Part shown: piece after piece, positions 26,748 through 60,982 of the stretch
Layout of the letters: the number at the start of each line of letters is the position of its first letter
Numbering within the stretch: position 1 is the stretch's first letter
From: an uncultured Clostridia bacterium
Lineage (GTDB): Bacteria > Bacillota_I > Bacilli_A > RF39 > UBA660
Direction of reading: 5' to 3'
NCBI GenBank assembly: GCA_947165945.1
Contig: CAMVCF010000001.1
Span: 957 to 64,956, forward strand
DNA length: 64,000 nucleotides
Notes under the pieces: model-generated
What the model saw: the letters and a program-made list of their open reading frames with translations, nothing else
What the model was told of the DNA's origin: nothing
The model's database searches: none
Position numbers and translations under genes: made by a program

Positions 26748-27684
26748 CTAAATCACCTCTTATATTTTTTAATTCATAATAATTCTTTGGAAATCCCATT
26801 CCATCTAAAACTTTATCTATTTTAATACTATGTAAATTTAATTCTAAATTATCTAAATTATGTTTTATTTCTTCAATTAAATTAGAAAATTCATCAAAAC
26901 TTAACATCTGTTTTAAAATAATTATTAAAGCAAATACATCTTTTTTACCATATATATATTCATCATCCATAATTGGAATATTCAAAAGTCTATGATAATT
27001 ATTATCATTTATTTGTCTTTGAGTTTTATTAGAGAATAAAATATCTTCATGAGCGCATAAATTTCTATAATTTGATAATATAGTTAAATAATTTGATAAA
27101 GTATCTATATCTAAATTATATAAATTAGCTATGCTCATTTGATCTTCTTTTTTTAAAATCGAATAAAGTTCTCCTACTATTCCAAATGATAAAACTTTTA
27201 CTAAAACCCATAAAGGAATATATCCATAATTATTAACATAATGACTTGTTGCTGAATGCTGAGTTGCATTTAAATTTATCTGCCTTTTCATTTTTTTTAA
27301 TATATCTAGTACTTGTTTTGTTTTTTCTTTATTGGTTGTAAAATTTTTAGGAACTAAATAATCTTTTTCTCTATATCCATATTTTAAAGATAATTGATAA
27401 CTAATAATCGATTTAATATTATTTTCAACAATTAATATATTTTTAAATAATATATTTCTAAATGTTCTATCAAATAAAAATAAACTATAAAGTTCCTCAA
27501 AAGTAGTTCCTTCTATATATCTTCTATCAACATTACTTCTTAGGAATAAATGTCTATATCCATTTAGAAAAAAATAATTTTCACGAAATAGTACTTCTTT
27601 AGCATATTCTGGATTATTTACTATTAACCCCTTACTTTTAAAAATTTCTACTTGCTCATTTAGGGTTTTAAATTCCTTTTTCAT
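26731..27684 (-). CDS. Abi_2 (AbiD/AbiF-like) abortive-infection family protein
   Basis: MKKEFKTLNEQVEIFKSKGLIV start is typical of AbiD. WVLVKVLSFGIVGELYS...LSNYRNLCAHEDILFS. Its 3' end overlaps the htrA start by 17 nt. Confidence 0.7.
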   Translation of the reverse strand: MKKEFKTLNEQVEIFKSKGLIVNNPEYAKEVLFRENYFFLNGYRHLFLRSNVDRRYIEGTTFEELYSLFLFDRTFRNILFKNILIVENNIKSIISYQLSLKYGYREKDYLVPKNFTTNKEKTKQVLDILKKMKRQINLNATQHSATSHYVNNYGYIPLWVLVKVLSFGIVGELYSILKKEDQMSIANLYNLDIDTLSNYLTILSNYRNLCAHEDILFSNKTQRQINDNNYHRLLNIPIMDDEYIYGKKDVFALIIILKQMLSFDEFSNLIEEIKHNLDNLELNLHSIKIDKVLDGMGFPKNYYELKNIRGDLDERER

Positions 27685-27853
27685 TCTTTCCTCTCCTACC
27701 TTCATAAGTATATCACAAAATTAATAAAAAAATATGTTTTTTTAGTGAAATTTTTCTATATTTTTAAAGAATAATAATTTATATAGAAGATATTCTTATA
27801 AATATTATATTTTAAAATATGACATCATTTTACGATAATCAATAAATTTATAT

Positions 27854-27899: not shown

Positions 27900-28349
27900 A
27901 TGCCCAAAAATAAATTATCAAGAGTTATATCTATTTTACTAAAAATAATACTTGTTAGTGGAATTATTCTAATTCCTTTTATACCAATGATATTTAATTT
28001 AATTGGAGCTGAAAATTTAAAATCTTTTAACAATCAAACACCAATTTATCAAATTACTTTATTTATTTGCTATTTTATTAGTTTAGGAATTATATTTGTA
28101 CTTACTCGAATGTTTGATCAACTTTATAAAGATCCATTTACAAGTTTTACAGAAAAGTCTTTAAAAATAATTGCTTTTTTATTCATGACTTTATCAATTA
28201 TAATATTCATAAAAATATTTTTTATTACAACTATAATATCGATTGCTATTTGTATAATCACATTTATTGTTAGTCTTTGTTTTTATACATTAAGTGAAAT
28301 ATTTAAAGTAGCTACTAGTAATAAAAAGGAGTTGGATTATACAATATGA
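27900..28349 (+). CDS. DUF2975-like small polytopic membrane protein
   Basis: 4-TM 149-aa protein immediately upstream of, and overlapping (ATGA), a YozG-like HTH gene. Classic pairing. Confidence 0.5.
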   Translation: MPKNKLSRVISILLKIILVSGIILIPFIPMIFNLIGAENLKSFNNQTPIYQITLFICYFISLGIIFVLTRMFDQLYKDPFTSFTEKSLKIIAFLFMTLSIIIFIKIFFITTIISIAICIITFIVSLCFYTLSEIFKVATSNKKELDYTI

Positions 28350-28552
28350 TCGTTGTTAATTTAGATGTTATGATGGCAAAAAGAAAAATTAGTTTAAATG
28401 AATTAAGCAAAAAAACAAGTATTACTACTACTAATCTTTCTATTTTAAAAAACAATAAAGCTCGTGCAATACGATTTTCAACTCTTGATGTAATATGCAA
28501 AGTTTTAGACTGTGAACCTAAAGATATACTAGAATATAAGGAGGATTTATGA
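28346..28552 (+). CDS. YozG-like Cro/C1-type HTH transcriptional regulator
   Basis: MIVVNLDVMMAKRKISLNELSKKTSITTTNLSILKNNKARAIRFSTLDVICKVLDCEPKDIL. Confidence 0.75.
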   Translation: MIVVNLDVMMAKRKISLNELSKKTSITTTNLSILKNNKARAIRFSTLDVICKVLDCEPKDILEYKEDL

Positions 28553-29796
28553 ATGATTTTAAAGAATTAAAAGAAAACTATTTAAAATATGATCTAAAGT
28601 ATTTTACTATCTCATCAATTATATCAACAATACTAATTACTATTTTTTATAACTTAAATATTGATTTTTATTTAAAAAGCTTTATTATTCCAACTTTAAT
28701 TGTTTTAATAACTTATATTGTTAATATAAAGCATAACAAATTAGAAAAGAATAAAATAAGCTATTATTTATTAATACCAATTATGCTTATAATTTTAAAT
28801 TCATTTATATTTAAAGTTGACTTTAGTAATAAATTTTTAAATATACTTATACTACCTATAATAATTACTTGTTTATTACTATATCTTTTAAATAAGAATT
28901 TTAAATTTAAAATTAAAACATTTATTATTTTTATAGAAGATACTCTTAATAATTTATTTCCTAATTTAAATAATATTAATAAATTATTTAAAGAAAAATC
29001 TAAAAATAAAAATATTATTCAAATTATTATAGGTCTTTTAATAGGTATTCCTATTTGTATAATACTACTTTCTCTTCTTTCAAGTGCAGATATGTATTTT
29101 AATTATTTTATAGGAAGTATTTTAGATAAAGTTTTAGACTTATTAAATATAGAATTTATTTGGAAGAATATATTTGTAATATCAATTTCATTTATATTAA
29201 CTTTTTCAATTTTTATTAATTATATGTTAAAAAGAGATATTGATGTAACTAAAACAAAGTTATTAAATATCTCAAGTTCAAGTATTTCAACTATTTTAAT
29301 TTTAATAAACCTTGTATATTTATTATTTTTATTTGTTGAAATTTCTAAATTAACAACTAACTTTTTACATTTACCAGCTCTTTATACTTATTCAGAATAT
29401 GCAAGGGAAGGATTTTTTCAATTATTATTTATTACATGTATAAATTTTATTATAACTTTATTTATACTTTATAAAACTAATTTAGAAAATAATAAAATAA
29501 TTAAAACTTTACTACTTATATTAATATCTTTATCTATCGTTTTAATTTTTAATTCCTATTATAGAATGATTCTTTATATAAGTGCTTATACATTTACTAT
29601 ATTAAGACTTCAAGTTATACTATTCTTATTTCTAGAACTTATTTTATTTATTTTATTAATTAAAAAAATAGTAAAAGACTTAAAACATAATAATTTTAAA
29701 TTATTTAGTATTATTGCTTTAATTATTTATATAATTAACTTATATTTATGTAATGATATAGTAATTGATTTTATAAATAAATTAATAACAAAATAG
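28549..29796 (+). CDS. Polytopic membrane protein (415 aa), third gene of the HTH operon
   Basis: About 10 predicted TM segments. Start overlaps the HTH stop (ATGA). Confidence 0.45.
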   Translation: MNDFKELKENYLKYDLKYFTISSIISTILITIFYNLNIDFYLKSFIIPTLIVLITYIVNIKHNKLEKNKISYYLLIPIMLIILNSFIFKVDFSNKFLNILILPIIITCLLLYLLNKNFKFKIKTFIIFIEDTLNNLFPNLNNINKLFKEKSKNKNIIQIIIGLLIGIPICIILLSLLSSADMYFNYFIGSILDKVLDLLNIEFIWKNIFVISISFILTFSIFINYMLKRDIDVTKTKLLNISSSSISTILILINLVYLLFLFVEISKLTTNFLHLPALYTYSEYAREGFFQLLFITCINFIITLFILYKTNLENNKIIKTLLLILISLSIVLIFNSYYRMILYISAYTFTILRLQVILFLFLELILFILLIKKIVKDLKHNNFKLFSIIALIIYIINLYLCNDIVIDFINKLITK

Positions 29797-29808
29797 TATA
29801 AAAGAATT

Positions 29809-30663
29809 CTAATTTTTTAGAATTCTTTTTATATTTAAAGATGCATCATAATATTCATTTTTACTATATTCTTTATTTCTTTCTGATGCATATTTAATAG
29901 CATCTTTAATACTACAATTCTCTTTAATTAAAATATCAATTAAAATAGCTTCAGCACTTGTATTAGGTTTTTCTTTTTCACTTTCTTTATTTTTAGAAAC
30001 AATTATAACATATTCCCCTAACTCATAGTTTTTATTTTCAAGAATACTTTTTAAAACTTCACTAGTGTTTCCATAATATTTTCTTTCAAATTTTTTGGTT
30101 AAATCATTTAAAACTATAATATAAGGATTATCCATTACTTCATTAATATTATTCAAAGTATCTATAATTCTTTTTGGTGATTCATAGAATACTACTATTT
30201 CAAGATCATTTTTCTTTATTTTTTCTAGTTCTTTTCTTTGTTGACTATTTTTTCTTTCCAAAAATCCATAAAAAGCAAAATTATTAATAGATAATCCTGA
30301 TAAAGTTAAAGCACTTATAACAGCACTAGGACCAGGTATAGTATATATTTCAATATTTTCTTTTATTGCAAAATTTACAACTATACTACCTGGATCTGAT
30401 ATACAAGGACTTCCTGCATCTGTAATAAGTGCAATATTTTGTCCACCTTTTAAAAGATCAATTACTTCACGACTTCTATCTATTTCATTAAATTTATGAT
30501 AAGACATAAGCTTATTAGTTATACCTAACATGGTTAATAAATGACTTGAATTTCTTGTATCTTCACATAAAATTAAATCAACTGATTTTAATACATCAAC
30601 TGCTCTTTCAGAAATATCTTTGACATTTCCAATTGGAGTTGCAACAATATATAATATTCCCAT
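29809..30663 (-). CDS. rsmI: 16S rRNA (cytidine1402-2'-O)-methyltransferase
   Basis: MGILYIVATPIGNVKDISERAVDVLKSVDLILCEDTR. Confidence 0.88.
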   Translation of the reverse strand: MGILYIVATPIGNVKDISERAVDVLKSVDLILCEDTRNSSHLLTMLGITNKLMSYHKFNEIDRSREVIDLLKGGQNIALITDAGSPCISDPGSIVVNFAIKENIEIYTIPGPSAVISALTLSGLSINNFAFYGFLERKNSQQRKELEKIKKNDLEIVVFYESPKRIIDTLNNINEVMDNPYIIVLNDLTKKFERKYYGNTSEVLKSILENKNYELGEYVIIVSKNKESEKEKPNTSAEAILIDILIKENCSIKDAIKYASERNKEYSKNEYYDASLNIKRILKN

Positions 30664-34115: not shown

Positions 34116-35612
34116 TTATCCAATATTTGATATTTCAATAGTTGAAATTGTACTATTTAATGCTTGATCCATTACATAAACTGTATAAGTTCCATTTTCA
34201 GTAACTCTTATTTGATTTTTGTTAATAGTTGTTCCATTACTTTCAAAATATTCTTTATTTTGATTTCCTTTAGCATATTTTATAGCTACAATATCACTGT
34301 CATCAGTTGCTTCTATATTTATAAGATAAAAGTTATTTAAAATTGCATCTCCATATACTCTTAAATTACGTATTTTAGTAGTTGGTTTACTAAATGATGC
34401 ACTAATTAAATAGGTAAGTTTAATATTTTTTATACTTTCACCATATCTTTCATTTAAAGATGATGAAATATTTCTACCACTATACCAATTAAGATCATTT
34501 TGCCATTGATTAATTTCTCCACTCAATCCAAATCCATTAGAGGTTCTTCCCTTACTATTGGAAACTGCATTTCTTGATGCATCAAAGTATTGAGCATTCC
34601 AATAAAATCCTCCATCTTCTGATCCAGATAAAGCTGTTGTTGTATATCCATCAAATACTGTATACCAAAATCCGCCATTTACATTTATATAATCAGATTC
34701 TGCTTTTGATGTTGATTGTGACATTACTAATACTCCATCTTCAACCGTTGAATTTGTAAGAGTCCAGTTATTAAAGTTTTGTTCTAGATAAGTTTCTTTT
34801 GATAAAGAGAGAACTGGTGCAACATTATCTTGTTCCCATTTAGCATATAATGTACTATCAATTTGTAAATTATAGTTAGTCGCACTTTCTACTTTATTTG
34901 TATATGTATCTTCTAAATACCATCCTACAAATCTATATCCAGCTTTTGTTGGAGTTGGTAACTCGCCATATGAACGATTATAATTAACTTGTTTTTCAAT
35001 AGGTGTTACATTTCCACCATCTGTATTAAAAGTTATAGTATATTGTTTATCAGCTATTATATCAAAGCTTTCTCCTTCAGCTTTTACATAAGCTTTAAAT
35101 ACTTTATTTGGCTCCTCATAATAATAATCTATCCAAAAATACAATTTACAACTAATTACTTGATTTGATTCAAATTCTTCTATTTCATATAATACTAGAT
35201 CATCTTCATGAACATAATCTTTCTTTTTTAAAGTATCATTTATATACAATGCGTATCTTACTGCTCCTAAATTTATTTTTTTATTAGACGGTATTGTATC
35301 ATCTAATTCAAGTGATATTTTAGCATTAATTGGTACTAAACTTGTATTTTCTAAAGTAAATGTATATGGAGTGCTTTCAAGTCCTATTTCGTCTATAACT
35401 GGAACAGCATTTGTTAAATCTATAATATTTTCTCCTTCAGTAAATTTTAATGAAATTAATCCTGTTTTTAAAACATTATCTCTTGAATCCTTATAGACAT
35501 ATACAAAATAAACTGCAGCTAGAGTTAGTCCTAATCCAAAAATTATTGTTAATACTAATGGTATTATTTTCATTTTCTTTTTATTTTTTCTTATTAACTC
35601 ATCGTTTTCCAT
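34116..35612 (-). CDS. Membrane-anchored surface protein: TasA-like N-domain plus Listeria-Bacteroides (Flg_new) repeat plus C-terminal domain
   Basis: The N-terminus resembles that of the LRR protein (…KTGLISLKFTEGENIIDLTNAVP…). YTITFNTDGGNVTPIE...GYRFVGWY is the Flg_new repeat. Confidence 0.6.
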   Translation of the reverse strand: MENDELIRKNKKKMKIIPLVLTIIFGLGLTLAAVYFVYVYKDSRDNVLKTGLISLKFTEGENIIDLTNAVPVIDEIGLESTPYTFTLENTSLVPINAKISLELDDTIPSNKKINLGAVRYALYINDTLKKKDYVHEDDLVLYEIEEFESNQVISCKLYFWIDYYYEEPNKVFKAYVKAEGESFDIIADKQYTITFNTDGGNVTPIEKQVNYNRSYGELPTPTKAGYRFVGWYLEDTYTNKVESATNYNLQIDSTLYAKWEQDNVAPVLSLSKETYLEQNFNNWTLTNSTVEDGVLVMSQSTSKAESDYINVNGGFWYTVFDGYTTTALSGSEDGGFYWNAQYFDASRNAVSNSKGRTSNGFGLSGEINQWQNDLNWYSGRNISSSLNERYGESIKNIKLTYLISASFSKPTTKIRNLRVYGDAILNNFYLINIEATDDSDIVAIKYAKGNQNKEYFESNGTTINKNQIRVTENGTYTVYVMDQALNSTISTIEISNIG

Positions 35613-40308: not shown

Positions 40309-41760
40309 CTATTTAAAGAATAATTTATATAAACTATTTTTCTTTTCAACAAGAGAATCATAATTACTTTTTAAATTAATACTTTTATAACAACTTTTTA
40401 AAATATCATTAATTGTACCACTTTCTATTAAATAATTTCTTTTTGTTAAAAAATCATCGATGTACAAAAATGGTAGTTCTTGAGAAAATATTACAGTAGA
40501 CATGGTATCTTTTTCATTTCTCATAGTCTTAGTCATTCCATAAAACGAAGATACGATTAAAGTATATTTACTTCCATTTCTATTTTCATCAAGTAATTTT
40601 AAAGTATTATCAATAACCATCAATTTATCTTTTAATTCTTTTGTTGTATTACAGTCACCTAATTCATAGTTAATTATTATTAAATCTTTATTAAATTGAT
40701 TTACAACTTGAACAATTCCAGCAGGATTATTTTCAATCTTTGTAATATCAACAAATGTTAAAGTATTAGTAGCTTCATTTTTAAGTCCGCAACAAAAATA
40801 ATTAATAATACCTACTCTATCACTTTTACAAAGTATTAATCCAGAGGCATTTAATTTTTCTAAATTATGAACCATACTATTTTTGGCAACTTCTGTTTCA
40901 TACATATGAGGAATATTTATATTACTTGTTACTGAAAACAATGAATAATATGAAAAATTATTTTTAGATTCTCCATAATTAATATTTGATAATGTATCTA
41001 TAAAACTAGTTAAATTTATATTATCATAATTAAAAATTAAAAATGTATCATTAATTCCTAAACTAAAATTAGAATTTACTATAAATGGTTTAGTTTCTCT
41101 AGGAAGTGTTTTCATAGCATATAAAACATCAAACTTTTGAGTAAATGATTGCCATTTTTCTCCTACTTTAGAAATAAACATCTTAAAGAAAAAATTCATA
41201 TCAACTTGCTTTGCACTATTAGAAATAGAATCAAGTCCTAAAATAAATCCTATTTCAGCATAATTAGATAAATCCATATTTATATGACTAAATACCTCAA
41301 CTAAATATTTATAATCTTCTATATTATTACTTGAAATAATTAAATGCAAAAAAACATTTTTTTTTAAATTAGGATTAATAAATTTTAAAGTCTCTTTTAA
41401 ATGATCAACTATTTTCAAACTAGGATCTACTAAACAAAACATATGTAAATTTCCATTTTTACTATCATAATCTTTTTTTAAATTTAATAAAGTTGAATTT
41501 TTAATTAAGTTTTTTGTCTCTATTTCCTTATCTAAAATACTATAACTATATAACTCATTTATATCCATAGAAACATTTCTATATGCATCATAATAATTAC
41601 TTACACGAGAAATAACTGAATTATTAGAAAATAAATAATTCCGAGATAACTCTGAAAATGTAGGCATCAAAGTATCATCATAAATAGGATATGATTCCTT
41701 CTTTTCAACCCCAAAGCCATTTATTAACATCAATACTGTTTTCTTATTCATATTCTTCAC
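40309..41760 (-). CDS. Catalytically degenerate paralogue of 2,3-bisphosphoglycerate-independent phosphoglycerate mutase (alkaline-phosphatase superfamily)
   Basis: Collinear with iPGM: TVLMLINGFGV~ALIILDGFAL, NLHMFCLVDP~SLHLFGLLSDGG, IINYELGDCN~ILNYANPDMVGH, YTLIVSSFYG~IAIITADHGN. It lacks the GQMGNSEVGH Ser-nucleophile segment, and DHGN is replaced by SFYG. Confidence 0.5.
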   Translation of the reverse strand: MKNMNKKTVLMLINGFGVEKKESYPIYDDTLMPTFSELSRNYLFSNNSVISRVSNYYDAYRNVSMDINELYSYSILDKEIETKNLIKNSTLLNLKKDYDSKNGNLHMFCLVDPSLKIVDHLKETLKFINPNLKKNVFLHLIISSNNIEDYKYLVEVFSHINMDLSNYAEIGFILGLDSISNSAKQVDMNFFFKMFISKVGEKWQSFTQKFDVLYAMKTLPRETKPFIVNSNFSLGINDTFLIFNYDNINLTSFIDTLSNINYGESKNNFSYYSLFSVTSNINIPHMYETEVAKNSMVHNLEKLNASGLILCKSDRVGIINYFCCGLKNEATNTLTFVDITKIENNPAGIVQVVNQFNKDLIIINYELGDCNTTKELKDKLMVIDNTLKLLDENRNGSKYTLIVSSFYGMTKTMRNEKDTMSTVIFSQELPFLYIDDFLTKRNYLIESGTINDILKSCYKSINLKSNYDSLVEKKNSLYKLFFK

Positions 41761-41833: not shown

Positions 41834-44266
41834 TTATTTTTTTATTTTCTTTTTAATATATTTAATTTGATCTGGATCGTCAAAACAATTTTCATCAAGT
41901 ATAACTTTTTCAATATCACCATTTGCTATATTTTTATCAATTATGTTTTTTATAGGAATAAAAGCACTTTGAATACCTCTAGCTCCTTGTTTTTTTTCAA
42001 GAGCTTTTTTAGCAAGCATTTTTTTAAACCCATCAGACATAGATACAACTATTCCATCACTTGCATAGCCTTTTTTTACTAAAGTTACAACTCCTCCATC
42101 TGGATTATCAATAATTTCATATAAAGTATCAAGATTAATATTATTTAGGGGAACTTTATTAGGAAATCTTCCTAAGAATTGTCTATCTAGTCCATATTCA
42201 TGTAGATCATCGTCAGTCGGAGTTTCGAGTTTTTTTATTTTGGAAGATTCTTGTCCAAATCCTACTTTTCCAAGACCTTTCTGTTTTTTTATTCTCTCTC
42301 TTATAAATTCATCTAACCCATCAAATGCACCTGTTCCTATAACCCAAAGATTAGAAGTATCAAATTCTATGGATGCTCGACCTGGAATTTTACTTTGAAT
42401 TACTCTTTTATCTCCTTCAATTAAAGTTAATAAATTGTATTGAACACCTGATGACATATCGTCAGAGTGATTTCCTTTTTCAACTTTAATCTTATCTATT
42501 TCATCAATATATAAAATTCCATTTTCTGCTTTTTCCAAATCACCTTTACTAACTTCAACTAAATCAACAAGCATTGAATCAACATCTTCTCCAACAAATC
42601 CAACTTTTGAATATCTTGTTGCTATTTCTCTTACAAATGGAATACTAAAAATATTTGCAAGAGCTCTTACAATTGCTGTTTTTCCTACTCCGGTTGGACC
42701 AAATAATAATATATTTTCTTTTAATTCGCGAAGTTCTTCTTTAGTATAATCACGGCGACGATTAAAAATATGATTAAAAAATGCATTTACAACATAAAAA
42801 ATTGCATCATCTTGACCTTTAACACTCTTCTTTATCAAATTAACTGTATCCATGATTGTTAAATCATTTATTGTTCGTTTATTTAAGGAAACATTAAGTC
42901 CATCATTTACAACTTTTTTTTCTTTATTTGATTTTGGCCTAATAACTTCTAAATCATCTTCTTCATTTATTAATTCATCATATGCTTCATCATGAAATAC
43001 ATTAACGGTTCCAATTTTTAAATCAAATATATCATCTCCTCTAAAATTTATTTCTTTTAAAGATATATCTTTTGATTCTAATAGATATTTCAATGTTCTA
43101 ATTATTCCCGAAAAACCTAAATTGAAATCCAATCCATAATCAACTAAAGTATTTATAAAATCATTACTAATATGAACTATTTTTCCTCTTTCTTCTAACA
43201 TTTTTTTTATCTTATATAATGGTGATGTTTTTTTATTTTTTAAAATATTACATGCAAGATCTTCAGTCATTTCTTCCATAAATATTGCTTCATTGTTAAA
43301 TAAGTCATCAATCATATTTAAAGAAAAACCTATTTCACTTAATCTTTTTCCATAAATTTTAGAATAATAAATATCATCATACTTAGCATCAGAAAAATCA
43401 TATTGCATATCTAAAATACAAACATTTGTGATAAATGAATAATCAAATTTCATAATTTTATTATCTTGACTTTTTAAATAAACATCTTGACTTTTCATGA
43501 TCATTTCAAGTTCTCCTACATATGATATAAGATCCCCTTCTTGATTAAATGTTCCAATTGATTCTATTCCATCAAAAATAACAATACCACGTTCAGCTAA
43601 ATATTTATTTCCACCAGCAAGAATTAATAACTGTTTTACTATATCAGTAATATCTTGAAATTTATCTCCAGTTAATTTATAAACTAAAACTGGAATTGGT
43701 GATAACATATTAAGAATTGAATCAACAATACTAGATTTTCCTGATCCTATTCCACCTATCAACAAAATGTTATTTTTATATTTATAAATATCTTCATATG
43801 ATAAATCTGATTCAAAATACATATGATTCTCATATATTTTTTTTAAGATCTTATCAATTGGTTTATCTTGACCTATTACTTTATCTTTTAAATCTTCTTT
43901 AACATAAGATACTAACTCTTCTATTTTATAATTTGGTATTAGTCTAAAATCATGATATTCATCATGAAAAGCAAGAGTTACATCATTATATTCATTAGGG
44001 TCTGATACTGAAACAATTTCATTACCTACTTCTTTATAAAAAATAAATTCATCCATTGAAATGTTTTCATATACGTCCTTATTAATTTCTAAATAAACCA
44101 TTCTTGATCTTTTATTTAGAAGACTTGATATTTCTTGATCTAAGAAATTTCCTTCTACAACCTTAATTTTGTCATCAAATGTAAGTTCTCCTATTACTTT
44201 ATCAATTACTTGATAATAAATAGTATCTTCATATAATATTTTTCGAAGTACTAAAGCATATTTCAT
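41834..44266 (-). CDS. Tandem ClpX-like AAA+ protein (810 aa): degenerate N-terminal module plus a canonical ClpX-type C-terminal module
   Basis: The C-terminal half reads NILLFGPTGVGKTAIVRALANIF...VGFVGEDVDSMLVDL...GILYIDEIDKI...GVQYNLLTLIEG...GLGKVGFGQ (IGF-like)...GARGIQSAF. The N-terminal half reads VIGQDKPIDKILKKIYENH...NILLIGGIGSGKSS...GIVIFDGIESI, so the Walker B DE is replaced by DG. Confidence 0.6.
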   Translation of the reverse strand: MKYALVLRKILYEDTIYYQVIDKVIGELTFDDKIKVVEGNFLDQEISSLLNKRSRMVYLEINKDVYENISMDEFIFYKEVGNEIVSVSDPNEYNDVTLAFHDEYHDFRLIPNYKIEELVSYVKEDLKDKVIGQDKPIDKILKKIYENHMYFESDLSYEDIYKYKNNILLIGGIGSGKSSIVDSILNMLSPIPVLVYKLTGDKFQDITDIVKQLLILAGGNKYLAERGIVIFDGIESIGTFNQEGDLISYVGELEMIMKSQDVYLKSQDNKIMKFDYSFITNVCILDMQYDFSDAKYDDIYYSKIYGKRLSEIGFSLNMIDDLFNNEAIFMEEMTEDLACNILKNKKTSPLYKIKKMLEERGKIVHISNDFINTLVDYGLDFNLGFSGIIRTLKYLLESKDISLKEINFRGDDIFDLKIGTVNVFHDEAYDELINEEDDLEVIRPKSNKEKKVVNDGLNVSLNKRTINDLTIMDTVNLIKKSVKGQDDAIFYVVNAFFNHIFNRRRDYTKEELRELKENILLFGPTGVGKTAIVRALANIFSIPFVREIATRYSKVGFVGEDVDSMLVDLVEVSKGDLEKAENGILYIDEIDKIKVEKGNHSDDMSSGVQYNLLTLIEGDKRVIQSKIPGRASIEFDTSNLWVIGTGAFDGLDEFIRERIKKQKGLGKVGFGQESSKIKKLETPTDDDLHEYGLDRQFLGRFPNKVPLNNINLDTLYEIIDNPDGGVVTLVKKGYASDGIVVSMSDGFKKMLAKKALEKKQGARGIQSAFIPIKNIIDKNIANGDIEKVILDENCFDDPDQIKYIKKKIKK

Positions 44267-44340
44267 AATAATCTCTCCTATAACTTATTATCATAAATTA
44301 AAAAAAAATAAAAAGAAAGATAATTGACACTTTCTTTATA

Positions 44341-45531
44341 TTATTTTTCTTTTTTATAAAAAACAGCAGGCATGATCTTTAAATCATTGTATTTTATATT
44401 AATATTATCTAAAACTGTTTGTATTTTATCTTCTTTTAAAGAACTAGTTGTATCTTCAAATAAAGATACCTGACTACTTTTATAATCTACTAAATCACTT
44501 ACTCTTACTCCTATATTACGAATTAATTGATCTTTAATTATAATATCAAAAAGTGCTAATACATTATCATATAATTCCATAGTATTATTTGTTTGATTTA
44601 ACAGCTTTTTCTGATGTGAATATGATTTAAATTCTTTTGTTTTTAAAGTAATTGCAATAGTTTTAGCATACATTTTCTTTTTTCTTAACAAAGTTCCTAT
44701 TTTACTTGTCATTTTTAAAAGTTTATTTTTTAAAAATATTTTATCATTAGTATCAAACTCTAATGTTTCAGAAAAACTAATTGATTTACTTTTACCATGT
44801 TTACTAATTACTTTACTATCATCGATTCCATTTGCATATTCATGCATAAAAGTAGCTTGATTTTTAAAATGTTTTCTTAAAAAAGAGATATCACATTGAG
44901 CAAGATCTCCTATTGTATTAATATTTAAACTTCTAAGTATTTTACTAGTACTTTTTCCAATAAATAATAAATCTTCTATAGGAAGAGGCCACATTTTAGT
45001 TTTTATTTCATTAAAAAATAAAGTATGAACTTTATCTGGTTTTTCAAAATCACCTGCCATTTTAGCACATAGTTTATTATTTCCTATTCCAATATTAACA
45101 GTAAATCCAAATTTTTCTTTAATTTCATTTTTCATTTTATAAGCCAGTTCTAAAATATCATCATATAAAAAGGTTGTATTTGATAAATCTAAAAAGCATT
45201 CATCAATTGAAAATCTTTCAACATCAGGAGTAAATGTTAAAAAATATTCATAAAGATTTTTTGATTGTTCTTGATAAAATTCAAAGTTTGGAGGAAATAC
45301 TTCTAAGTTTTTACATTTAAGTCTTGCACTATGTAAAGTTTCAGCTGTTTTAACTCCATATTTTTTTGCAACAGGGCTTTTAGCTAAAACTATTCCATGA
45401 CGTTTATCCTCATCTCCTCCTATACAACTAGGAATTAATCTAATATCTTGTTTATACCCTTGATTTAGTAAATAAATAGCACTCCAAGATAGGAATGCAT
45501 TATTTACATCTACATGAAATATAATTCTCAT
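44341..45531 (-). CDS. dinB: Y-family DNA polymerase (DinB/Pol IV-like)
   Basis: MRIIFHVDVNNAF...SIDECFLDL...KLCAKMAGD and little-finger region. Confidence 0.75.
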   Translation of the reverse strand: MRIIFHVDVNNAFLSWSAIYLLNQGYKQDIRLIPSCIGGDEDKRHGIVLAKSPVAKKYGVKTAETLHSARLKCKNLEVFPPNFEFYQEQSKNLYEYFLTFTPDVERFSIDECFLDLSNTTFLYDDILELAYKMKNEIKEKFGFTVNIGIGNNKLCAKMAGDFEKPDKVHTLFFNEIKTKMWPLPIEDLLFIGKSTSKILRSLNINTIGDLAQCDISFLRKHFKNQATFMHEYANGIDDSKVISKHGKSKSISFSETLEFDTNDKIFLKNKLLKMTSKIGTLLRKKKMYAKTIAITLKTKEFKSYSHQKKLLNQTNNTMELYDNVLALFDIIIKDQLIRNIGVRVSDLVDYKSSQVSLFEDTTSSLKEDKIQTVLDNINIKYNDLKIMPAVFYKKEK

Positions 45532-51633: not shown

Positions 51634-52503
51634 TTATTCATTTGAGATTAAGATGCTTTCTTTATTACTAGAAGTATTAATTCCAATTATATTTTTATCA
51701 CCAATTAGTATCTCAAGCTCTTTTTTTGCAATATTATTGAGCTTAACTAATCTTTCACTTTGTTTTATATTATTTTCAATCATATTTGCATTTAAAACTT
51801 CTAAATTACTTAAAACAACTAATTGTAAAACATCAGCATAATCTCTAATATTCCCTTTTAAATGTGGATTATTTTTTCTCCATTCTTTAGCTGTTTGACC
51901 AAACAATGCAACATTTATTACATCAGCCTCATCTGCATATACAAGTTGCTTTTGTTTCTCTGTTAATTTTGGAATAATGTTTTCTTTAATACTATCTGTA
52001 TGTATTCTATAATTTGTTTTAGTAAGCATTCTTCGTACTGACCATTCTATCTTTTCCTGATAACTTTCATTATATTTTAATCTTTTAAATTCTTTTATTA
52101 AATATATTTTAAATAAATTATCAATCCAGGAAGCAAATTCTAAGGCAATATCAGAATGGGCAAATGTTCCAATACTATATTTACCTTTACTATATGTCAT
52201 TCCGATAGCATTTACTTCTGTACACCATCTGCTTGGTGTCATTGTAAAAGACCTTTTAGGTGCTTCACTTTTAATTAGGCTGAATTCCGCCGAATTAAAA
52301 TTTTCATTACTTAATTTTTCCCATAAACCTAAAAATTCTATTGTATCATAATTGCTTAACCATTTTTTTATTACGTCTGATGGATCATTTGGATTTTTAT
52401 ATCTTGCTAAGTCAGTTAATGAAATATAATCCTCATCATTAATTCTCATTACTCTAATTTCATTTTCATTTACATTCAGAATAGTTGTAATTTTATCATT
52501 CAT
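51634..52503 (-). CDS. KilA-N domain protein (phage antirepressor-like)
   Basis: NENEIRVMRINDEDYISLTDLARYKNPNDPSDVIKKWLSNYDTIEFLGLWE...FAHSDIALEFASWI. Confidence 0.6.
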   Translation of the reverse strand: MNDKITTILNVNENEIRVMRINDEDYISLTDLARYKNPNDPSDVIKKWLSNYDTIEFLGLWEKLSNENFNSAEFSLIKSEAPKRSFTMTPSRWCTEVNAIGMTYSKGKYSIGTFAHSDIALEFASWIDNLFKIYLIKEFKRLKYNESYQEKIEWSVRRMLTKTNYRIHTDSIKENIIPKLTEKQKQLVYADEADVINVALFGQTAKEWRKNNPHLKGNIRDYADVLQLVVLSNLEVLNANMIENNIKQSERLVKLNNIAKKELEILIGDKNIIGINTSSNKESILISNE

Positions 52504-52615: not shown

Positions 52616-53782
52616 TTAATCTCTACTATATAGATCTCTTGTATACACTTTATTTTGTATTTTTTTAGTATTCTCATCTAATCTATTTACTAGAACTACA
52701 TCACTTATACTTGAAAATTCATTAAAATCTTTAACAACTGGACATTCATTAAAGAAAGAATCTTTTAAAGTTGGTTCATAAATTACTACTTTTACATTGT
52801 TTTTCTTAAGTCTATCGATTATTCCTTGAATAGCACTGGCTCTAAAGTTATCACTATTAGTTTTCATAGTCAATCTATATATTCCAACTACTTTAGGATT
52901 CTTCTTTAAGATCATACTCGTAATATGATCTTTTCTTGTATCATTTGATTTAACAATTGCTTCAATTAAATTTTGTGGAACATCTTTATAATTTGCAAGT
53001 AATTGTTTTGTATCTTTAGGAAGACAATATCCTCCATATCCAAATGATGGGTTATTATAATGACTTCCAATTCTTGGATCTAAAGATACCCCTTCAATAA
53101 TATCTTTAGTATTAAGACCTTTTAATTCTGCATAAGTATCAAGTTCATTAAAGAAAGATACTCGAAGTGCAAGATATGTATTTGCAAATAATTTAACAGC
53201 TTCTGCTTCTGTTGAATTCATATAACGAACTTCAATATCTTTTTTTAAAGCACCTTTCTTTAATAGTTCAGCAAATTCATGAGCCTTATCGCTATTTTCT
53301 CCAACAATAATACGAGATGGATATAAATTATCATATAAAGCTTGACCTTCTCTTAAAAATTCTGGAGAAAAGAAAATATTATTTAATTCATATTTTTCTT
53401 TTACATTTTTAATAAAGCCAACTGGTATAGTTGATTTAACTACCATAGTTGTATCTATTCCCATACTTTTTACTTTCTTAATGATATCTTCAACACTAGA
53501 TGTATCAAAATAATTTTTTTCATCATCATAATTAGTTGGTGTTGAAATAATAATAAATTTTGCATCAGTAAACGCTTCTTTATAATCTAAAGTTGCTCTT
53601 AAATTTAAATCCTTCTCTTTAAAATATTTCTCAATATAAAGATCCTTTATAGGTGATATACGATTATTAATCATATCAACTTTTTCTTTTATTATATCAA
53701 GTGCTACTACTTCATTATCAACACTTAAAAGTGTTGCTAGGGATAATCCTACATATCCTGTTCCTGCTACTGCTATTTTCAT
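52616..53782 (-). CDS. ugd: UDP-glucose 6-dehydrogenase / nucleotide-sugar dehydrogenase
   Basis: MKIAVAGTGYVGLSLATLL plus central and C-terminal UDPG_MGDP_dh domains (GGYCLPKD). Confidence 0.85.
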   Translation of the reverse strand: MKIAVAGTGYVGLSLATLLSVDNEVVALDIIKEKVDMINNRISPIKDLYIEKYFKEKDLNLRATLDYKEAFTDAKFIIISTPTNYDDEKNYFDTSSVEDIIKKVKSMGIDTTMVVKSTIPVGFIKNVKEKYELNNIFFSPEFLREGQALYDNLYPSRIIVGENSDKAHEFAELLKKGALKKDIEVRYMNSTEAEAVKLFANTYLALRVSFFNELDTYAELKGLNTKDIIEGVSLDPRIGSHYNNPSFGYGGYCLPKDTKQLLANYKDVPQNLIEAIVKSNDTRKDHITSMILKKNPKVVGIYRLTMKTNSDNFRASAIQGIIDRLKKNNVKVVIYEPTLKDSFFNECPVVKDFNEFSSISDVVLVNRLDENTKKIQNKVYTRDLYSRD

Positions 53783-53882
53783 ACTACTCTCCAATCAATT
53801 AAAATTACTTGTATAGTATATAATATATATTAACATTTTTCAAGATCATATTTCAAAATGTATAATTAACAACAACTATATT

Positions 53883-54992
53883 TTAATTAGAAATTTTATC
53901 AACACATTCTAATGCCGCCATAATTACATCATCCATGTCATAATACTTATATTCAGCAAGACGTCCTCCAAATATAACATTTTCTTCTTTTTTAGAAAGT
54001 TCTTTATACCTTTCAGCTAACTTCTCATTTTTTTCATCATTTATGACATAATATGCTTCATTTTGTGATGTCCAATTTTCAGGATATTCATATGTTACAA
54101 CTGTTTTGTCGCTTTTATTTGAAGTATCAAAATGTTTATGTTCTATTACTCTAGTATATTTAACCTCATCACCAGTATAATTAACTACTGCATTACCTTG
54201 AAAATTATCAATATCATATATTTTCATATCAAATCTTAATGATCTATACTCTAATTTACCTAATTTATAATCAAAATATTCATCAATCATACCGGTATAA
54301 ATTATTTTATTTGCAATTTTATTATAATACTGTTTATTATCAAAATAATTTGTATTTAATTCTATATCAATTCCACTTAGCATATTTTCAACCATCTTTG
54401 TATATCCACCGATAGGAATTCCTTGATATTCATCATCAAAATAATTATTATCATACGTAAATCTCACAGGTAATCTTTTTATTATAAAAGCCGGTAATTC
54501 TTTACATGATTTATTCCATTGCTTTTCCGTATAACCCTTTATTAACTTTTCATATATTGTTTTGCCAACTAAAGAAATTGCTTGTTCTTCTAAATTATTA
54601 GGAATTTTAACAGACAGCTCACTTTTTTCTTTTTCAATACGCTTTTTAGCATCTTCTGGAGTTATAACATCTTTCCATAATTTTGAAAAAGTATTCATAT
54701 TAAATGGCATATTATATATTTCATTCCCAATTCTTGCAATTGGTGAATTAGTAAATCTATTAAAATCACTAAAAGAATTAACGTATTCCCATACTTCTTT
54801 ATTATTAGTATGAAAAATATGAGCTCCATATTTATGAACTTCTATTCCCTCTATATTTTCAGTATATACATTACCAGCTATATGATTTCTTTTATCAATA
54901 ACTAGTACCTTTTTTCCATTCTGATGAAGCTTATTTGCCACTGTTGATCCAAACAAACCTGCTCCAACAATTAAATAATCATACTTTTTCAC
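53883..54992 (-). CDS. glf: UDP-galactopyranose mutase
   Basis: MKKYDYLIVGAGLFGSTVA...HIFHTNN...YTEKQW. Confidence 0.88.
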   Translation of the reverse strand: MKKYDYLIVGAGLFGSTVANKLHQNGKKVLVIDKRNHIAGNVYTENIEGIEVHKYGAHIFHTNNKEVWEYVNSFSDFNRFTNSPIARIGNEIYNMPFNMNTFSKLWKDVITPEDAKKRIEKEKSELSVKIPNNLEEQAISLVGKTIYEKLIKGYTEKQWNKSCKELPAFIIKRLPVRFTYDNNYFDDEYQGIPIGGYTKMVENMLSGIDIELNTNYFDNKQYYNKIANKIIYTGMIDEYFDYKLGKLEYRSLRFDMKIYDIDNFQGNAVVNYTGDEVKYTRVIEHKHFDTSNKSDKTVVTYEYPENWTSQNEAYYVINDEKNEKLAERYKELSKKEENVIFGGRLAEYKYYDMDDVIMAALECVDKISN

Positions 54993-54993
54993 A

Positions 54994-56439
54994 TTAAATT
55001 CTCCTTATTTTATTAATAAATTTATTTATAATTTCAAGTGTAAATTTGTCTTTTAATAATATTAGACAAACACCATATGTAACTATTCCTGTTATAACTT
55101 GAACTAATAATACTAAAACATCATTAATTGGCATATTTCTTAAAATAAAACAACAAAAAAACATTAATAAAGAAGCCAAAATATAATTCTTTGACAATTT
55201 GACTATATCTTTTAATTCAAAATCACATCGAACATAATAAATTTGAACCATTGATACAAGAAATTCTGCAATTAAAGTTCCAAATGATGCACCTATTGCA
55301 CCATATTTAGGAATTAATAACATGTTAAAGATAAAATTAACAACAGCTCCAACTATAACTGAAATTGTATATTCTTTTTGTCTTTTAGTTGGCAGTAAAT
55401 ACTGAATACCTGTAACATTGCTTAATCCAATTAATAATAATATAGGACTAATTATATTCATTAATAATACAACTTTATCATATCCTTTACCAAAAAATAA
55501 AGGCACAAATCTAGTATTTACACTTATAATACCTAATATCATTGGAAATGATAAGAAAAACACAAGATTAAACGACTTAAGCATATATTGTTTTATTTTT
55601 TCTCTATTACCATTGGCATACGTATAAGCAATTCTTGGCATCATTACTGCTCCAAGTGATGTTATAATAGTTAAAAGCATTTTTATTATCTTTTGACTTT
55701 GCTCATAATATCCTACTTCTTTTTTATCCATAATAATTGCTCCAATCATTGTTTTATCTAATAAAGCATATACTTGAATTGCTATTTGGGGAATAAATAA
55801 GACAATTGTTGGCTTTAAATGCCGTAAAACATTTAAGTCTTTTAATTTTATTTTTACTAAATATTTTGGTAAATATAATAGTAATGAAAAATTACCTATT
55901 AATGTTGATAATACATAAATTATAAAGTATATTTTCAAATCATTTTTTGTTTTCACAAAAATAAAAATTAATATTAAACTTATTACCTTTACTATAAAAT
56001 GTCTCATTACATTTTTTTTAAATTCTTCTATACCTTTAAAAAACCAACTTACATCTAAAAAATTAGCAAAAATTTCAAGTATTAATATTGTATAATAAAT
56101 ATGATATTGATTATTTCTAAAAACAAAAATAAAATAAAATAATAATAAAGAACATGATAAAGTTATTAATCTTAATAATATTATCTCCCAAAATATTTTA
56201 CTATATTTTTCTTTATCATTTTGCACATATGCTATTTCTCTTTGTCCATATAAAGCAATTCCTAATGATCCAAAAGTAATAAAATAGGTTACTATTGAAA
56301 TAGTATAGCTATAAATGCCAATATTTTCTGCCCCTAGTACTCTAGATATATATGGAGCAGTTACTAATGGTAATATTAATGTTAATACTTGATATAATAA
56401 ATTATAAACATAATTTTTGGTAATACTTTTTTTCTGCAT
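54994..56439 (-). CDS. wzx: Polysaccharide flippase (Wzx, MOP superfamily)
   Basis: 481 aa with about 12-14 TM; typical Wzx N-terminus LYQVLTLILPLVTAPYISRVLG. Confidence 0.7.
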   Translation of the reverse strand: MQKKSITKNYVYNLLYQVLTLILPLVTAPYISRVLGAENIGIYSYTISIVTYFITFGSLGIALYGQREIAYVQNDKEKYSKIFWEIILLRLITLSCSLLLFYFIFVFRNNQYHIYYTILILEIFANFLDVSWFFKGIEEFKKNVMRHFIVKVISLILIFIFVKTKNDLKIYFIIYVLSTLIGNFSLLLYLPKYLVKIKLKDLNVLRHLKPTIVLFIPQIAIQVYALLDKTMIGAIIMDKKEVGYYEQSQKIIKMLLTIITSLGAVMMPRIAYTYANGNREKIKQYMLKSFNLVFFLSFPMILGIISVNTRFVPLFFGKGYDKVVLLMNIISPILLLIGLSNVTGIQYLLPTKRQKEYTISVIVGAVVNFIFNMLLIPKYGAIGASFGTLIAEFLVSMVQIYYVRCDFELKDIVKLSKNYILASLLMFFCCFILRNMPINDVLVLLVQVITGIVTYGVCLILLKDKFTLEIINKFINKIRRI

Positions 56440-56455
56440 ATAATAACATCCAATT

Positions 56456-57445
56456 CTATATTTTCTTTTTTTGTCTTAAATAATTAGACAATATATTTAA
56501 TAAAAAATAATGTGAAATAATTAACAAATTAACAATTTTATCATTTTTAAATTCTTTATATATATATTCATCGCATTTACAAATTGATATAATTTCTTTA
56601 ATTTCATTCTTTTTATTCTCTTTAAACAAAAGTAATATTTTAATATGCTCTTGTGCCATTTTTGCAATTCTTTTAGAAACAAAATATTTCTTTTCAATAG
56701 ATAAATTCAACAAATTCTTTTTATAAAACTGTATATTATTTAATAATACTAATTTATGTTGGTCAATATTTTTCATCATACTATGTGGATTTATGCTCTG
56801 ATTTTCTTGAGCAACTCTATACACATAAATACTTTTATTATAATAAAATACCGTTTTTGCAAATATTATTGGATATAAAACATATTCTGTATCAGTATAA
56901 AAACAGTTATCAATTTTAATAGAATTATCTTTAATAATCGATGTTTTAAAGATCAATGAATGCATTTGATATGGAATTTTTTCAAAATAATCATCAAAAT
57001 TAAATTCTTCCATTTTTGGCAAATCAAAAGTAAATTTCTTTGTAACTTGTTTTTTTAAATCATTAAAAACATCATAATCGCATACAACTAAATCAGATTC
57101 AATCCTCTCTAAAACATCAACTAACTCATCAAGTTCTTTCGAATTTATCCAGTCATCTCCATCAACCATTCTAAAGTATTTTCCAGTTGCATTTTGTATA
57201 CCTGAATTAACCGTTGAACCAGGTCCTTCATTCTTCTTTTTAATAACTTTAATAGTATTTGGATATTTTTCTTCAATTTTTTTTGCTAATTCAACTGTAT
57301 TATCACTACTTCCATCATCAGTTACAATTACTTCAATTTTATCACGATTATTACAATCAACAAAAGATTGTAAATTACCTTCTATCATTTCTCCTAAATT
57401 ATAAGCTGCAACACTTATCGTTAGTAATTTTTTCTCATTTTTCAT
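56456..57445 (-). CDS. Family 2 glycosyltransferase
   Basis: LTISVAAYN...VIVTDDGSSDNT...DGDD. Confidence 0.8.
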   Translation of the reverse strand: MKNEKKLLTISVAAYNLGEMIEGNLQSFVDCNNRDKIEVIVTDDGSSDNTVELAKKIEEKYPNTIKVIKKKNEGPGSTVNSGIQNATGKYFRMVDGDDWINSKELDELVDVLERIESDLVVCDYDVFNDLKKQVTKKFTFDLPKMEEFNFDDYFEKIPYQMHSLIFKTSIIKDNSIKIDNCFYTDTEYVLYPIIFAKTVFYYNKSIYVYRVAQENQSINPHSMMKNIDQHKLVLLNNIQFYKKNLLNLSIEKKYFVSKRIAKMAQEHIKILLLFKENKKNEIKEIISICKCDEYIYKEFKNDKIVNLLIISHYFLLNILSNYLRQKKKI

Positions 57446-57465
57446 ATAACACCTCATAAACTAAT

Positions 57466-58680
57466 TCATTTACATATATTATCATTATAATCTATTTTTT
57501 CTCTTTTCTCAAATACACTTAATGTAAAAAATATCAATGAAACAATAAATCTTTGATGAATATATAACCCATTATAAAATGCAACAAATAATAATAGTAA
57601 TAATATTAAAACCTTACTTATAAACTTTACATTAACACTAAAACAAAATTTTATTAAGCAGTAAAGATATAACAATAATCCCAAAATACCAAAAGAAATT
57701 AAAATTTGAAAAAAATCATTATGTGACCATATATTCATATTATTATATTTTGCGTGGATAATATATGTAGTCTCTGCTCCACAACCAAATATTTTATTAT
57801 AATTATTTTCAAGATTAAAATATGCTATATCCGTTTTTCTTAAATTTCCTCTACCATTATCAAAATTTTGTGAGGAAATAGTATTCTGCATTTTAGAATA
57901 TATTGATGTTTTTTTTATTATAGACACCCCACCAAACAATACTATTCCAATAAACATTAACAAAATTGCCAAAAAAAACATTTTTTCTTTAAAAAATAAA
58001 CCAGACGTAGATACTTTTATTTTATAATTTTTCAAAATCAAAAATTCAATTACAACTGCGAATAATGTTGGTACTCTTGCAGCGGACATTAAAGTCATTA
58101 TAATAAATATAATTGATACTAAATATAAAAGATTTTTTTTCTTCTTACTATTTCTTACTAAAAAATATATGCACATCAATACTCCTGATGTCCTATAAGC
58201 AAATTGATGTGGATCCCCATAAATTCCTGATAAAGCTTTTACTCCCCACGATGCACTATATCCAGTTGAAAAACCTTTACCTAACAATAAAAAGAATAAG
58301 TTAATTAATAGATTTAAGATAATTCCTATATAAATTATCTTTTCATTTTTTATCAATGCTTCGTAAGCACTAATTTTAAAAGTAGATAATGAATACAAAG
58401 TTAAATTTAAAATAATTATAATCATATTAATGACATGATGAATATGTACACTAACATTTTGTGTAATACTGAATGAAATTCCTATTGAAATTAATAATGA
58501 AATTAATAATAAAATATTTTTTCTATCAAACTTTGCATTAAAAATTATTATCATTAATGGGAAAACAATAAAAATTAAAGTATTAAATGGAACAAAAAAA
58601 TGAAAAAAAGACTCTAAAATTAAAACTATTGGAAATAATGAAAGTATTAAAAAATAAATATTTAATATTTTTTTATACAT
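57466..58680 (-). CDS. wzy: O-antigen polymerase/ligase-like (Wzy family) membrane protein
   Basis: 404 aa, polytopic, with a large periplasmic-type loop. Located in the glycan locus. Confidence 0.55.
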   Translation of the reverse strand: MYKKILNIYFLILSLFPIVLILESFFHFFVPFNTLIFIVFPLMIIIFNAKFDRKNILLLISLLISIGISFSITQNVSVHIHHVINMIIIILNLTLYSLSTFKISAYEALIKNEKIIYIGIILNLLINLFFLLLGKGFSTGYSASWGVKALSGIYGDPHQFAYRTSGVLMCIYFLVRNSKKKKNLLYLVSIIFIIMTLMSAARVPTLFAVVIEFLILKNYKIKVSTSGLFFKEKMFFLAILLMFIGIVLFGGVSIIKKTSIYSKMQNTISSQNFDNGRGNLRKTDIAYFNLENNYNKIFGCGAETTYIIHAKYNNMNIWSHNDFFQILISFGILGLLLYLYCLIKFCFSVNVKFISKVLILLLLLFVAFYNGLYIHQRFIVSLIFFTLSVFEKREKIDYNDNICK

Positions 58681-58681
58681 A

Positions 58682-59878: not shown

Positions 59879-59886
59879 CTTCTTAA

Positions 59887-60963: not shown

Positions 60964-60982
60964 ATCTTACTGCCTTTCAATA

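Follow-up and report, generated by a model that had tools for sequence, protein, structure and literature searches.

Can a ClpX-type protein unfoldase carry two ATPase modules in one natural chain, and what would the first of them do once it has lost the residues required for ATP hydrolysis? These questions are raised by a gene on contig CAMVCF010000001.1 of an uncultured Clostridia bacterium, of which a stretch of 64,000 nucleotides (hereafter the window) was analyzed. The coding sequence lies at 41834..44266 on the minus strand and, according to the list of open reading frames (ORFs) and their translation, encodes 810 amino acids (aa) plus a stop codon from an ATG start. A ribosome-binding site, AGGAG, can be read in the sequence at 44275..44279 on the same strand, 8 nt 5′ of the ATG. 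An earlier description made from the DNA letters alone (the sequence-only reading) had proposed that the product consists of two ClpX-type AAA+ modules, the first of them dead. The 810-aa ORF was borne out, with the addition that the gene is on the minus strand, and all the motifs quoted at that time were found at their relative positions when the sequence was re-read. The present comparison confirms the protein as a real finding, namely a conserved, clade-restricted ClpX–ClpX tandem whose first module is a pseudo-ATPase and whose N-terminal domain is an orphan.

The window has a GC content of about 24%, and almost all of its genes are on the minus strand. Because stop codons are frequent in DNA so rich in AT, an ORF of 810 codons is far above chance expectation. 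Since 84 non-identical family members share one common architecture, the tandem ORF is neither a chance product nor an assembly artefact.

The C-Terminal Motor Module

The second module, D2 (aa ~462–810; 41837..42883, minus strand, as are all parts of the gene given below), was delimited from NCBIfam and Foldseek matches and is a complete ClpX-type motor module. The NCBIfam model PRK05342 (ClpX) matched the C-terminal half at profile positions 59–409 of 418 with 232.5 bits, against a cut-off of 359, and the second ClpX model, TIGR00382, gave 208.2 bits, under its cut-off of 370.75. The identity of D2 to ClpX of E. coli is 34%. PHROG 4339, a family of unknown function, also matched D2 with 180 bits. 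A model of the protein was obtained with AlphaFold2 (AF2) from a 23-sequence alignment, with a mean predicted local distance difference test score (pLDDT) of 81. When D2 was compared with the PDB by Foldseek, the top 50 matches were all ClpX (E 1e-24, target template modeling (TM) score up to 0.88); 49 of these are experimental structures from electron cryo-microscopy, and the entry at rank 1, 9a5x_A, is an integrative CLPX–CLPP model. The collinearity with ClpX claimed in the sequence-only reading therefore stands over almost the full length of the profile. It does not extend to the RKH loop, which is absent, and the scores stay below the NCBIfam cut-offs for ClpX.

Motif counts, here and below, come from an alignment of the 84 non-identical family members, which was compared with E. 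coli ClpX. The Walker A motif GPTGVGKT (aa 523–530; 42677..42700), the Walker B motif LYIDEI (aa 585–590; 42497..42514) and the sensor-2 motif GARG (aa 761–764; 41975..41986) were identified in the sequence and the family alignment. The DE pair of Walker B is present in all 84 members and the sensor-2 arginine (R763) in 83 of them. The arginine finger R700 (42167..42169), located by the family alignment and by comparison of D1, D2 and E. coli ClpX, is likewise found in 84 of 84, and box II, the GAF segment and the Walker A pattern GxTGxGKT are also kept. The pore-1 loop reads GFVG (aa 556–559; 42590..42601; E. coli ClpX alignment and motif table), and its aromatic position is occupied by Tyr in 67 members, Phe in eight, Ile in eight and Leu in one. 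At the position of the ClpP-docking IGF loop stands VGF (aa 668–670; 42257..42265; alignment and motif table). The segment GLGKVGFG had rightly been taken as the counterpart of this loop, given that [IVLMA]GF is kept throughout the family (84/84). Its flanks are variable, and the loop appears flexible in the AF2 model (pLDDT <50 at aa 667–678). In the alignment with E. coli ClpX, the segment that would hold the RKH motif is 3–4 residues shorter in D2 and variable. D2 has the ClpX fold, and none of the catalytic elements that ClpX uses in cis or in trans is missing from it, nor is the ClpP-docking tripeptide.

A subclade (P0015, P0035, P0054, P0058 and P0062–P0065) carries GIVG or GLVG in the pore-1 loop of D2 instead of GYVG or GFVG (alignment A1), and also has ARLS where the other members have GRFP at the arginine finger. 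These changes may reflect a weaker grip or another substrate class.

A Degenerate ClpX-Type First Module

The first module, D1 (aa 115–417; 43016..43924), was delimited by profile comparisons and hhalign, comprises a large and a small subdomain, and is a catalytically degenerate AAA+ module derived from ClpX. D1 alone matched ClpX in the PDB by phmmer (E 1e-6), and the D1 profile of the family did so with E 2.4e-19 and 72.9 bits. HslU followed with E 9e-9, a value weaker by ten orders of magnitude than that of ClpX, and ClpA, ClpE and Hsp104 with E 4e-5 or weaker, mostly over the P-loop only (residues 204–230 in the case of ClpA, 23.9 bits). When the D1 modules of six diverse members were searched against NCBIfam, ClpX was the top family for each at E 4e-8 to 2e-17, with the families ranked below it many orders weaker, and E. 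coli ClpX aligned by tblastn with D1 of several orthologs over its residues ~70–380. A comparison of the D1 and D2 profiles by hhalign gave a probability of 99.5% and an E-value of 2.6e-22 over 278 columns that span both subdomains. These matches to ClpX and to D2 uphold the assignment of the N-terminal half to the ClpX-type AAA+ modules; since this half does score as AAA+ in profile searches, the doubt whether it belongs to the class at all falls away. When each half was aligned to ClpX and HslU profiles, ClpX was the best for both.

What D1 retains is limited to box II (xxGQ in the family, VIGQ here), Walker A and the aspartate of Walker B. Its Walker A motif, GGIGSGKS (aa 171–178; 43733..43756), conforms to GxxGxGK[ST] family-wide, and the aspartate of its Walker B motif, IVIFDG (aa 228–233; 43568..43585), is invariant. 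The residue after this aspartate is Gly in 42 members, Asp in 31, Ser in six, Asn in three, and Thr and Leu in one each. Glutamate occurs in none of the 84, in agreement with the missing catalytic residue of the sequence-only reading. The pore-1 position is taken by LTGDKFQDI (43649..43675; E. coli ClpX alignment and motif table), a segment two residues shorter than in ClpX that lacks the aromatic–hydrophobic pair of GYVG. Deletions have removed the RKH loop together with the sensor-1/GGAF segment and the entire IGF loop, an aspartate is found at the position aligned to the arginine finger, and GF.G stands in for the GARG of sensor-2. The description of one dead module thus proves correct and even understated, in that the pore, RKH, sensor-1, IGF, arginine-finger and sensor-2 elements are gone as well as the glutamate. 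As judged from its residues, D1 has lost all elements for hydrolysis, substrate gripping and ClpP docking, with only those for nucleotide binding left.

The loss of these elements is not accompanied by a loss of constraint. Among 37 members less than 80% identical to each other, the mean pairwise identity is 44–47% for D1, 47–51% for D2, 37% for the N-terminal domain and 21% for the linker between the modules. Because the values for D1 and D2 are nearly equal, D1 is not decaying and is held by purifying selection nearly as strong as that on D2. Motifs of its own (LTG, GNxxLAxRGI, SPLY and GF.GI) are invariant or nearly so, as counted in 23–84 members. The D1 profile scores about equally against the D2 modules of its own family (~60 bits) and canonical ClpX (~78 bits), and a tree would be an unreliable guide to duplication versus paralog fusion because the D1 branch is long. 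A database search with the D1 profile returned fragments (P0067, P0107 and P0108) and canonical ClpX and no other architecture with a D1-like dead module, in a list that also missed full-length members of the family, although these must match, so that absence from it carries no weight. One of the fragments, P0107, was considered as a stand-alone protein of N-terminal domain and D1 and was rejected as a frameshifted copy.

The Remaining Parts of the Chain

The N-terminal domain (aa 1–104; 43955..44266) is predicted by AF2 to consist of eight β-strands and a C-terminal helix. Modeled alone, it reaches a pLDDT of 91 and a predicted TM score (pTM) of 0.82. The first 112 residues contain no cysteine; therefore, they do not form the C4 zinc-binding domain of ClpX, the absence of which had been noted in the sequence-only reading. 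In its place, the model has a β-rich domain for which a Foldseek search of the PDB and BFVD gave nothing below E 0.001 (best query TM ~0.35), and searches of Pfam, NCBIfam, PHROG and PADLOC gave no match either. A profile of the domain, run against 1.84 billion representative proteins, yielded 18 matches, all of them tandem-family members (~783–803 aa) or fragments. Since the profile finds the tandem family alone, the domain is exclusive to it. According to the predicted structure, the N-terminal domain is a fold orphan that stands in place of the zinc-binding domain of ClpX.

The domain is joined to D1 by the junction motif YHDFRLIPNY (43928..43957; alignment A1). Across the family, it takes the form HDFxLIPxY, with D106, F107 and P111 invariant, and is partly modeled with low confidence (pLDDT <50 at aa 106–110). 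The linker between D1 and D2 (aa 418–455; 42902..43015; AF2 and alignment) is predicted to be disordered (pLDDT ~30). It is acidic at first and then basic, and varies across members from 25 to 41 aa in length and from 23 to 38% in its fraction of Asp and Glu.

Occurrence

The protein has full-length homologs of ~783–818 aa with 41–69% identity, and the gene was found in 20 of 185,579 GTDB species genomes. All 20 carriers are uncultured metagenome-assembled genomes with a GC content of 22–27%, from sheep rumen, roe deer gut, rabbit and the Hadza human gut, and most of them are labeled 'Bacilli bacterium'. Two further loci from the genome scan, L021 and L022, were rejected as relatives, being ordinary ClpC/ClpE loci. 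No relatives of the tandem family were detected in 2.9 million viral contigs, and PADLOC gave P-loop-level matches of 38 bits or less and no specific defense model. Both named database copies are annotated just as 'AAA family ATPase', and searches of a full-text literature library returned engineered single-chain constructs only and no natural tandem ClpX. The architecture is therefore as atypical as the sequence-only reading had held. With a generic NCBI name and no natural example in that library, nothing points to a common, annotated ClpX variant with a known role.

Relation to Known Unfoldases

Canonical ClpX (PRK05342/TIGR00382; PDB 6WRF, 6PO1 and 6VFS) shares with D2 the fold, box II, Walker A and B, the pore-1 loop, the arginine finger, sensor-2 and an IGF-type loop, and is the nearest AAA+ family of D1 as well. 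Whereas canonical ClpX has ~420 aa and one module, the tandem protein has 810 aa and two; it lacks the C4 zinc-binding domain and has the orphan N-terminal domain and the dead module in addition. Both of its modules are without the RKH loop, a feature that PMC7112951 calls unique to enzymes of the ClpX family.

Three proteins of 470 aa from other low-GC bacteria (P0071–P0073) have a single ClpX-type module with an IGF-like loop, ~32% identity to D2 and no zinc finger, and the D1 profile aligns across their full module. A hidden Markov model (HMM) search detected no relationship between their N-terminal region and the N-terminal domain of the tandem family; the N-termini of P0072 and P0079, examined as candidates for such a likeness, likewise gave no match. 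These single-module proteins, with their unrelated N-terminal extension of 150 aa, look like a second route to replacing the zinc-binding domain of ClpX. The gene of P0072 (L023:3981-5393) has aspS, a murD-like gene, greA and tig as neighbors.

In overall layout, the tandem protein resembles the class I double-ring Clp/Hsp100 ATPases ClpA, ClpC, ClpE and ClpB, which likewise have two AAA+ modules per chain and a separate N-terminal recognition domain. In class I Clp ATPases, the C-terminal (HCLR-clade) module bears the ClpP-docking loop, as in the tandem ClpX. However, their D1 belongs to another AAA+ clade and is normally active, whereas D1 of the tandem is ClpX-type and dead, and the tandem has neither Clp_N nor an M-domain. 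Clp_N was not matched among the 25 best of 44 Pfam families, the ClpA and ClpB models gave 45 bits (cut-off 993) and 29 bits (cut-off 1232), and the HslU model TIGR00390 gave 108 bits, below its cut-off of 362. A ClpX-type D1 together with these features unlike class I Clp implies that the two-module layout is of independent origin.

Engineered single-chain ClpX from the Sauer/Baker laboratory (in PMC7112951) is likewise built from ClpX modules without the zinc-binding domain, joined covalently by flexible linkers, and such chains tolerate a mix of active and inactive modules. Its modules are identical, complete and arranged in one planar ring, whereas in the tandem one module is without arginine finger, pore loop and IGF loop, which speaks against a ring shared by both. 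Two homologous rings that arose by internal duplication are a feature of NSF, p97 and Pex1–Pex6, where one ring binds nucleotide but hydrolyzes it little or not at all and has a role in assembly or regulation. By analogy, the tandem ClpX would be a parallel to these proteins in having one non-catalytic ring. They differ from it in belonging to the classical AAA clade, in being eukaryotic or archaeal and in having no coupling to ClpP, and which of their rings is inactive varies.

Quaternary Structure and Alternative Explanations

The best explanation, to which a probability of roughly 55% can be attached, is an unfoldase of the ClpX branch that arose by module duplication or paralog fusion and forms a two-tier hexamer, with the D2 ring on ClpP and a D1 ring that does not hydrolyze ATP. 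In this arrangement, six chains would assemble into a hexamer with two tiers. The D2 ring would be the ATP-driven translocase and would dock on ClpP through six [IVLMA]GF loops; in solved complexes, five to six IGF loops engage ClpP (PMC9035409). The D1 ring would bind nucleotide without hydrolysis and form a tier for assembly and/or gating at the face where substrate enters D2, and the orphan N-terminal domain may serve for substrate or adaptor recognition in replacement of the zinc-binding domain. Hydrolysis in ClpX depends on box II, Walker A and B and the sensor-II arginine in cis and on the arginine finger and sensor-I* of the clockwise neighbor (PMC7112951). Because D2 alone carries the trans arginine, and carries it invariantly, we infer that D2 must adjoin D2 in a homotypic ring. 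The RKH loops lie at the top end of the ClpX channel and are needed for recognition of the ssrA tag (PMC7112951), and their loss from D2 fits the two tiers because D1 would cover the D2 entry face. It may further be suggested, at somewhat less than even odds, that the tandem represents an independent invention of a double-ring Clp ATPase built entirely from the ClpX clade, in which a dead but nucleotide-binding ring together with the orphan N-terminal domain makes up a new tier of substrate selection on a ClpP-docked motor, and that it possibly replaces canonical ClpX in this uncultured clade of gut and rumen.

Several observations weigh against a stacked, ClpP-bound hexamer. A tblastn search of the window and 22 loci with manually entered ClpP and ClpX queries gave neither clpP nor a second clpX, and at 20 orthologous loci it covered up to 10 kb around the gene (less at contig ends). 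The linker between D1 and D2 is long (25–41 aa) and disordered, so that a fixed coaxial stack is not assured, whereas class I Clp ATPases have a tight connection between their modules. The AF2 monomer has a pTM of 0.45 and its inter-module geometry is unreliable. In nine of the 84 members, the aromatic residue of the D2 pore-1 loop gives way to Ile or Leu, and the Asp that follows the Walker B Asp of D1 in 31 of the 84 might permit residual hydrolysis. Finally, with D2 under the ClpX cut-offs and without the RKH loop, the protein may act on other substrates and with other partners than ClpX does.

Two alternatives keep the protein an active machine and change its assembly or its partner. Three chains could form a planar pseudo-hexamer, a single ring of six modules with D1 and D2 alternating, as a natural version of the engineered covalently linked ClpX dimers, trimers and hexamers; a pseudo-hexameric trimer had been raised as an option in the sequence-only reading. 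Such a ring would be compatible with a flexible linker of this length, which could bridge adjacent subunits, and with the retention of both large and small subdomains in D1. Engineered single-chain ClpX pseudohexamers, and linked AAA+ dimers in which inactive subunits alternate, are described as able to assemble and function (PMC7112951 and PMC12793716). Yet in this ring every D2 site would face a D1 with an aspartate in place of the arginine finger and without the sensor-1 segment, leaving all six sites crippled, while the arginine fingers of D2 would face sites without a catalytic glutamate and their invariance in 84 of 84 members would go unexplained. Moreover, three IGF loops would point toward ClpP instead of the five to six of the solved complexes (PMC9035409). 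The channel would also be lined by just three pore-1 loops, and the planar arrangement is judged quite improbable. Somewhat less doubtful, though still unlikely, is an unfoldase or remodeler that works independently of ClpP, either alone or with another partner, its GF loop docking on a protein other than ClpP. ClpX itself remodels substrates without ClpP, as in the case of the MuA transpososome. The missing clpP in the window and in the flanks of the 20 loci speaks for this possibility, as do the divergence of D2 (34% identity to E. coli ClpX, scores under the cut-offs) and the absence of the RKH loop and the zinc-binding domain. It is opposed by the [IVLMA]GF tripeptide, which all 84 members keep exactly at the IGF position within a variable, flexible loop and which has the signature of ClpP docking. 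Moreover, Gpr, MurB/G and FtsQ mark the host as a Firmicute with a cell wall and a sporulation gene, and to our knowledge such organisms carry ClpP.

The other two alternatives concern D1 by itself and the gene as a whole. D1 might be a functionless relic of the duplication or fusion, a mere spacer, as the loss of all its catalytic, pore and docking elements would allow. This is very unlikely in view of its mean pairwise identity of 44–47% against 47–51% for D2 and 21% for the true spacer, and of the invariance or near-invariance of Walker A, box II, the Walker B aspartate and the motifs peculiar to D1. As for an artefact of assembly or annotation, or an ATPase of a mobile element or defense system, the window does contain an IS256-type transposase, a restriction endonuclease and Abi_2, though more than 14 kb away. 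The ORF is uninterrupted in 20 species and 84 distinct sequences, and the chromosomal order of TspO, DinB, the tandem gene, the 483-aa protein and DUF1538 is kept. With 2.9 million viral contigs devoid of relatives and PADLOC matches that are generic to the P-loop, this last explanation is practically negligible.

Implications

ClpX is the model system of AAA+ protein unfolding, and a good part of what is known of its subunit coordination was learned from artificial covalent chains of live and dead modules. The tandem family is a natural covalent ClpX–ClpX chain with one dead module, under selection across a clade. Should the stacked rings prove true, the two-ring Clp architecture arose at least two times: ClpA, ClpB, ClpC and ClpE join modules of two AAA+ clades, whereas the tandem ClpX duplicates one. 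The D1 ring would then also provide a clear example from nature of a pseudo-ATPase ring kept for a non-catalytic role. In its orphan N-terminal domain, the family would have a new module for substrate or adaptor recognition. From the loss of both the zinc finger and the RKH loop, another degron logic is predicted for the carriers, for example for ssrA-tagged proteins. These points are of interest chiefly to AAA+ specialists; the hosts are few and uncultured, and the ClpP partnership and quaternary structure are predicted, which limits that interest.

Genomic Context

The gene is embedded in a conserved neighborhood. Upstream, TspO and DinB are syntenic across species, with VanW instead in more distant members. 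Downstream follow, in order, a 483-aa protein, DUF1538, a PII-like protein, a conserved 421-aa protein and NAGPA. The 483-aa protein (40309-41760, minus strand) lies directly downstream and is syntenic with the tandem gene in at least 11 species. Neither it nor the 421-aa protein has a Pfam match, and the conserved neighborhood gave no hint of a functional partner. The 483-aa protein shows weak similarity to cofactor-independent phosphoglycerate mutase of the alkaline-phosphatase superfamily. Between dinB and the tandem gene, an AT-rich hairpin (AAAGAAAG/CUUUCUUU) with a U-run was located in the sequence and with ViennaRNA (44300..44337, minus strand). The region 44295-44345 has a fold energy of −7.1 kcal/mol, and the hairpin was missed by a terminator scan based on G+C. 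In its sequence, this element looks like a terminator; behind the upstream dinB, it would probably make the tandem gene a transcription unit of its own.

The window as a whole is ordinary chromosome, with genes for SufS/B/C, Ffh, ScpA/B, MurB, MurG, FtsQ, IleRS, HtrA, NrdD/G and a polysaccharide cluster, and the host is a cell-walled Firmicute. A gene for the germination protease Gpr (Peptidase_A25, 300 bits; 7565-8560, minus strand) suggests that the lineage forms, or once formed, endospores.

An island of genes on the plus strand (18394-25612) interrupts the otherwise minus-strand region and holds DUF362, Ham1 and a DUF7736 protein. It also contains an IS256/Mutator-type transposase (19357-20565), tRNA-Met and tRNA-Leu (21666-21834), an MvaI/BcnI-type restriction endonuclease (22781-23584) and two ORFs with no Pfam match (23557-24345, minus strand, and 24566-25612, plus strand), one of which could be the cognate methylase. 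Beyond the island, an Abi_2 (abortive-infection-like) gene (26731-27705, minus strand) overlaps by 17 nt the start of a gene for an HtrA-type PDZ serine protease (25629-26747, minus strand). The GC content drops to 17% at 28001-30000, where a 149-aa ORF lacking annotation lies together with the gene of a DUF4153 membrane protein (28549-29796, plus strand). At the other end of the window, a KilA-N domain protein (51634-52503, minus strand) is encoded between nrdDG and the polysaccharide-synthesis cluster of ~11 kb (52616-63942), in which UDP-glucose dehydrogenase, Glf, a flippase, glycosyltransferases, a Wzy-like protein and two ATP-grasp proteins were recognized. A BspA-type leucine-rich-repeat surface protein (13495-15300, minus strand) and an internalin-like protein with List_Bact_rpt repeats (34116-35612, minus strand) suggest adhesion to a host or to particles.

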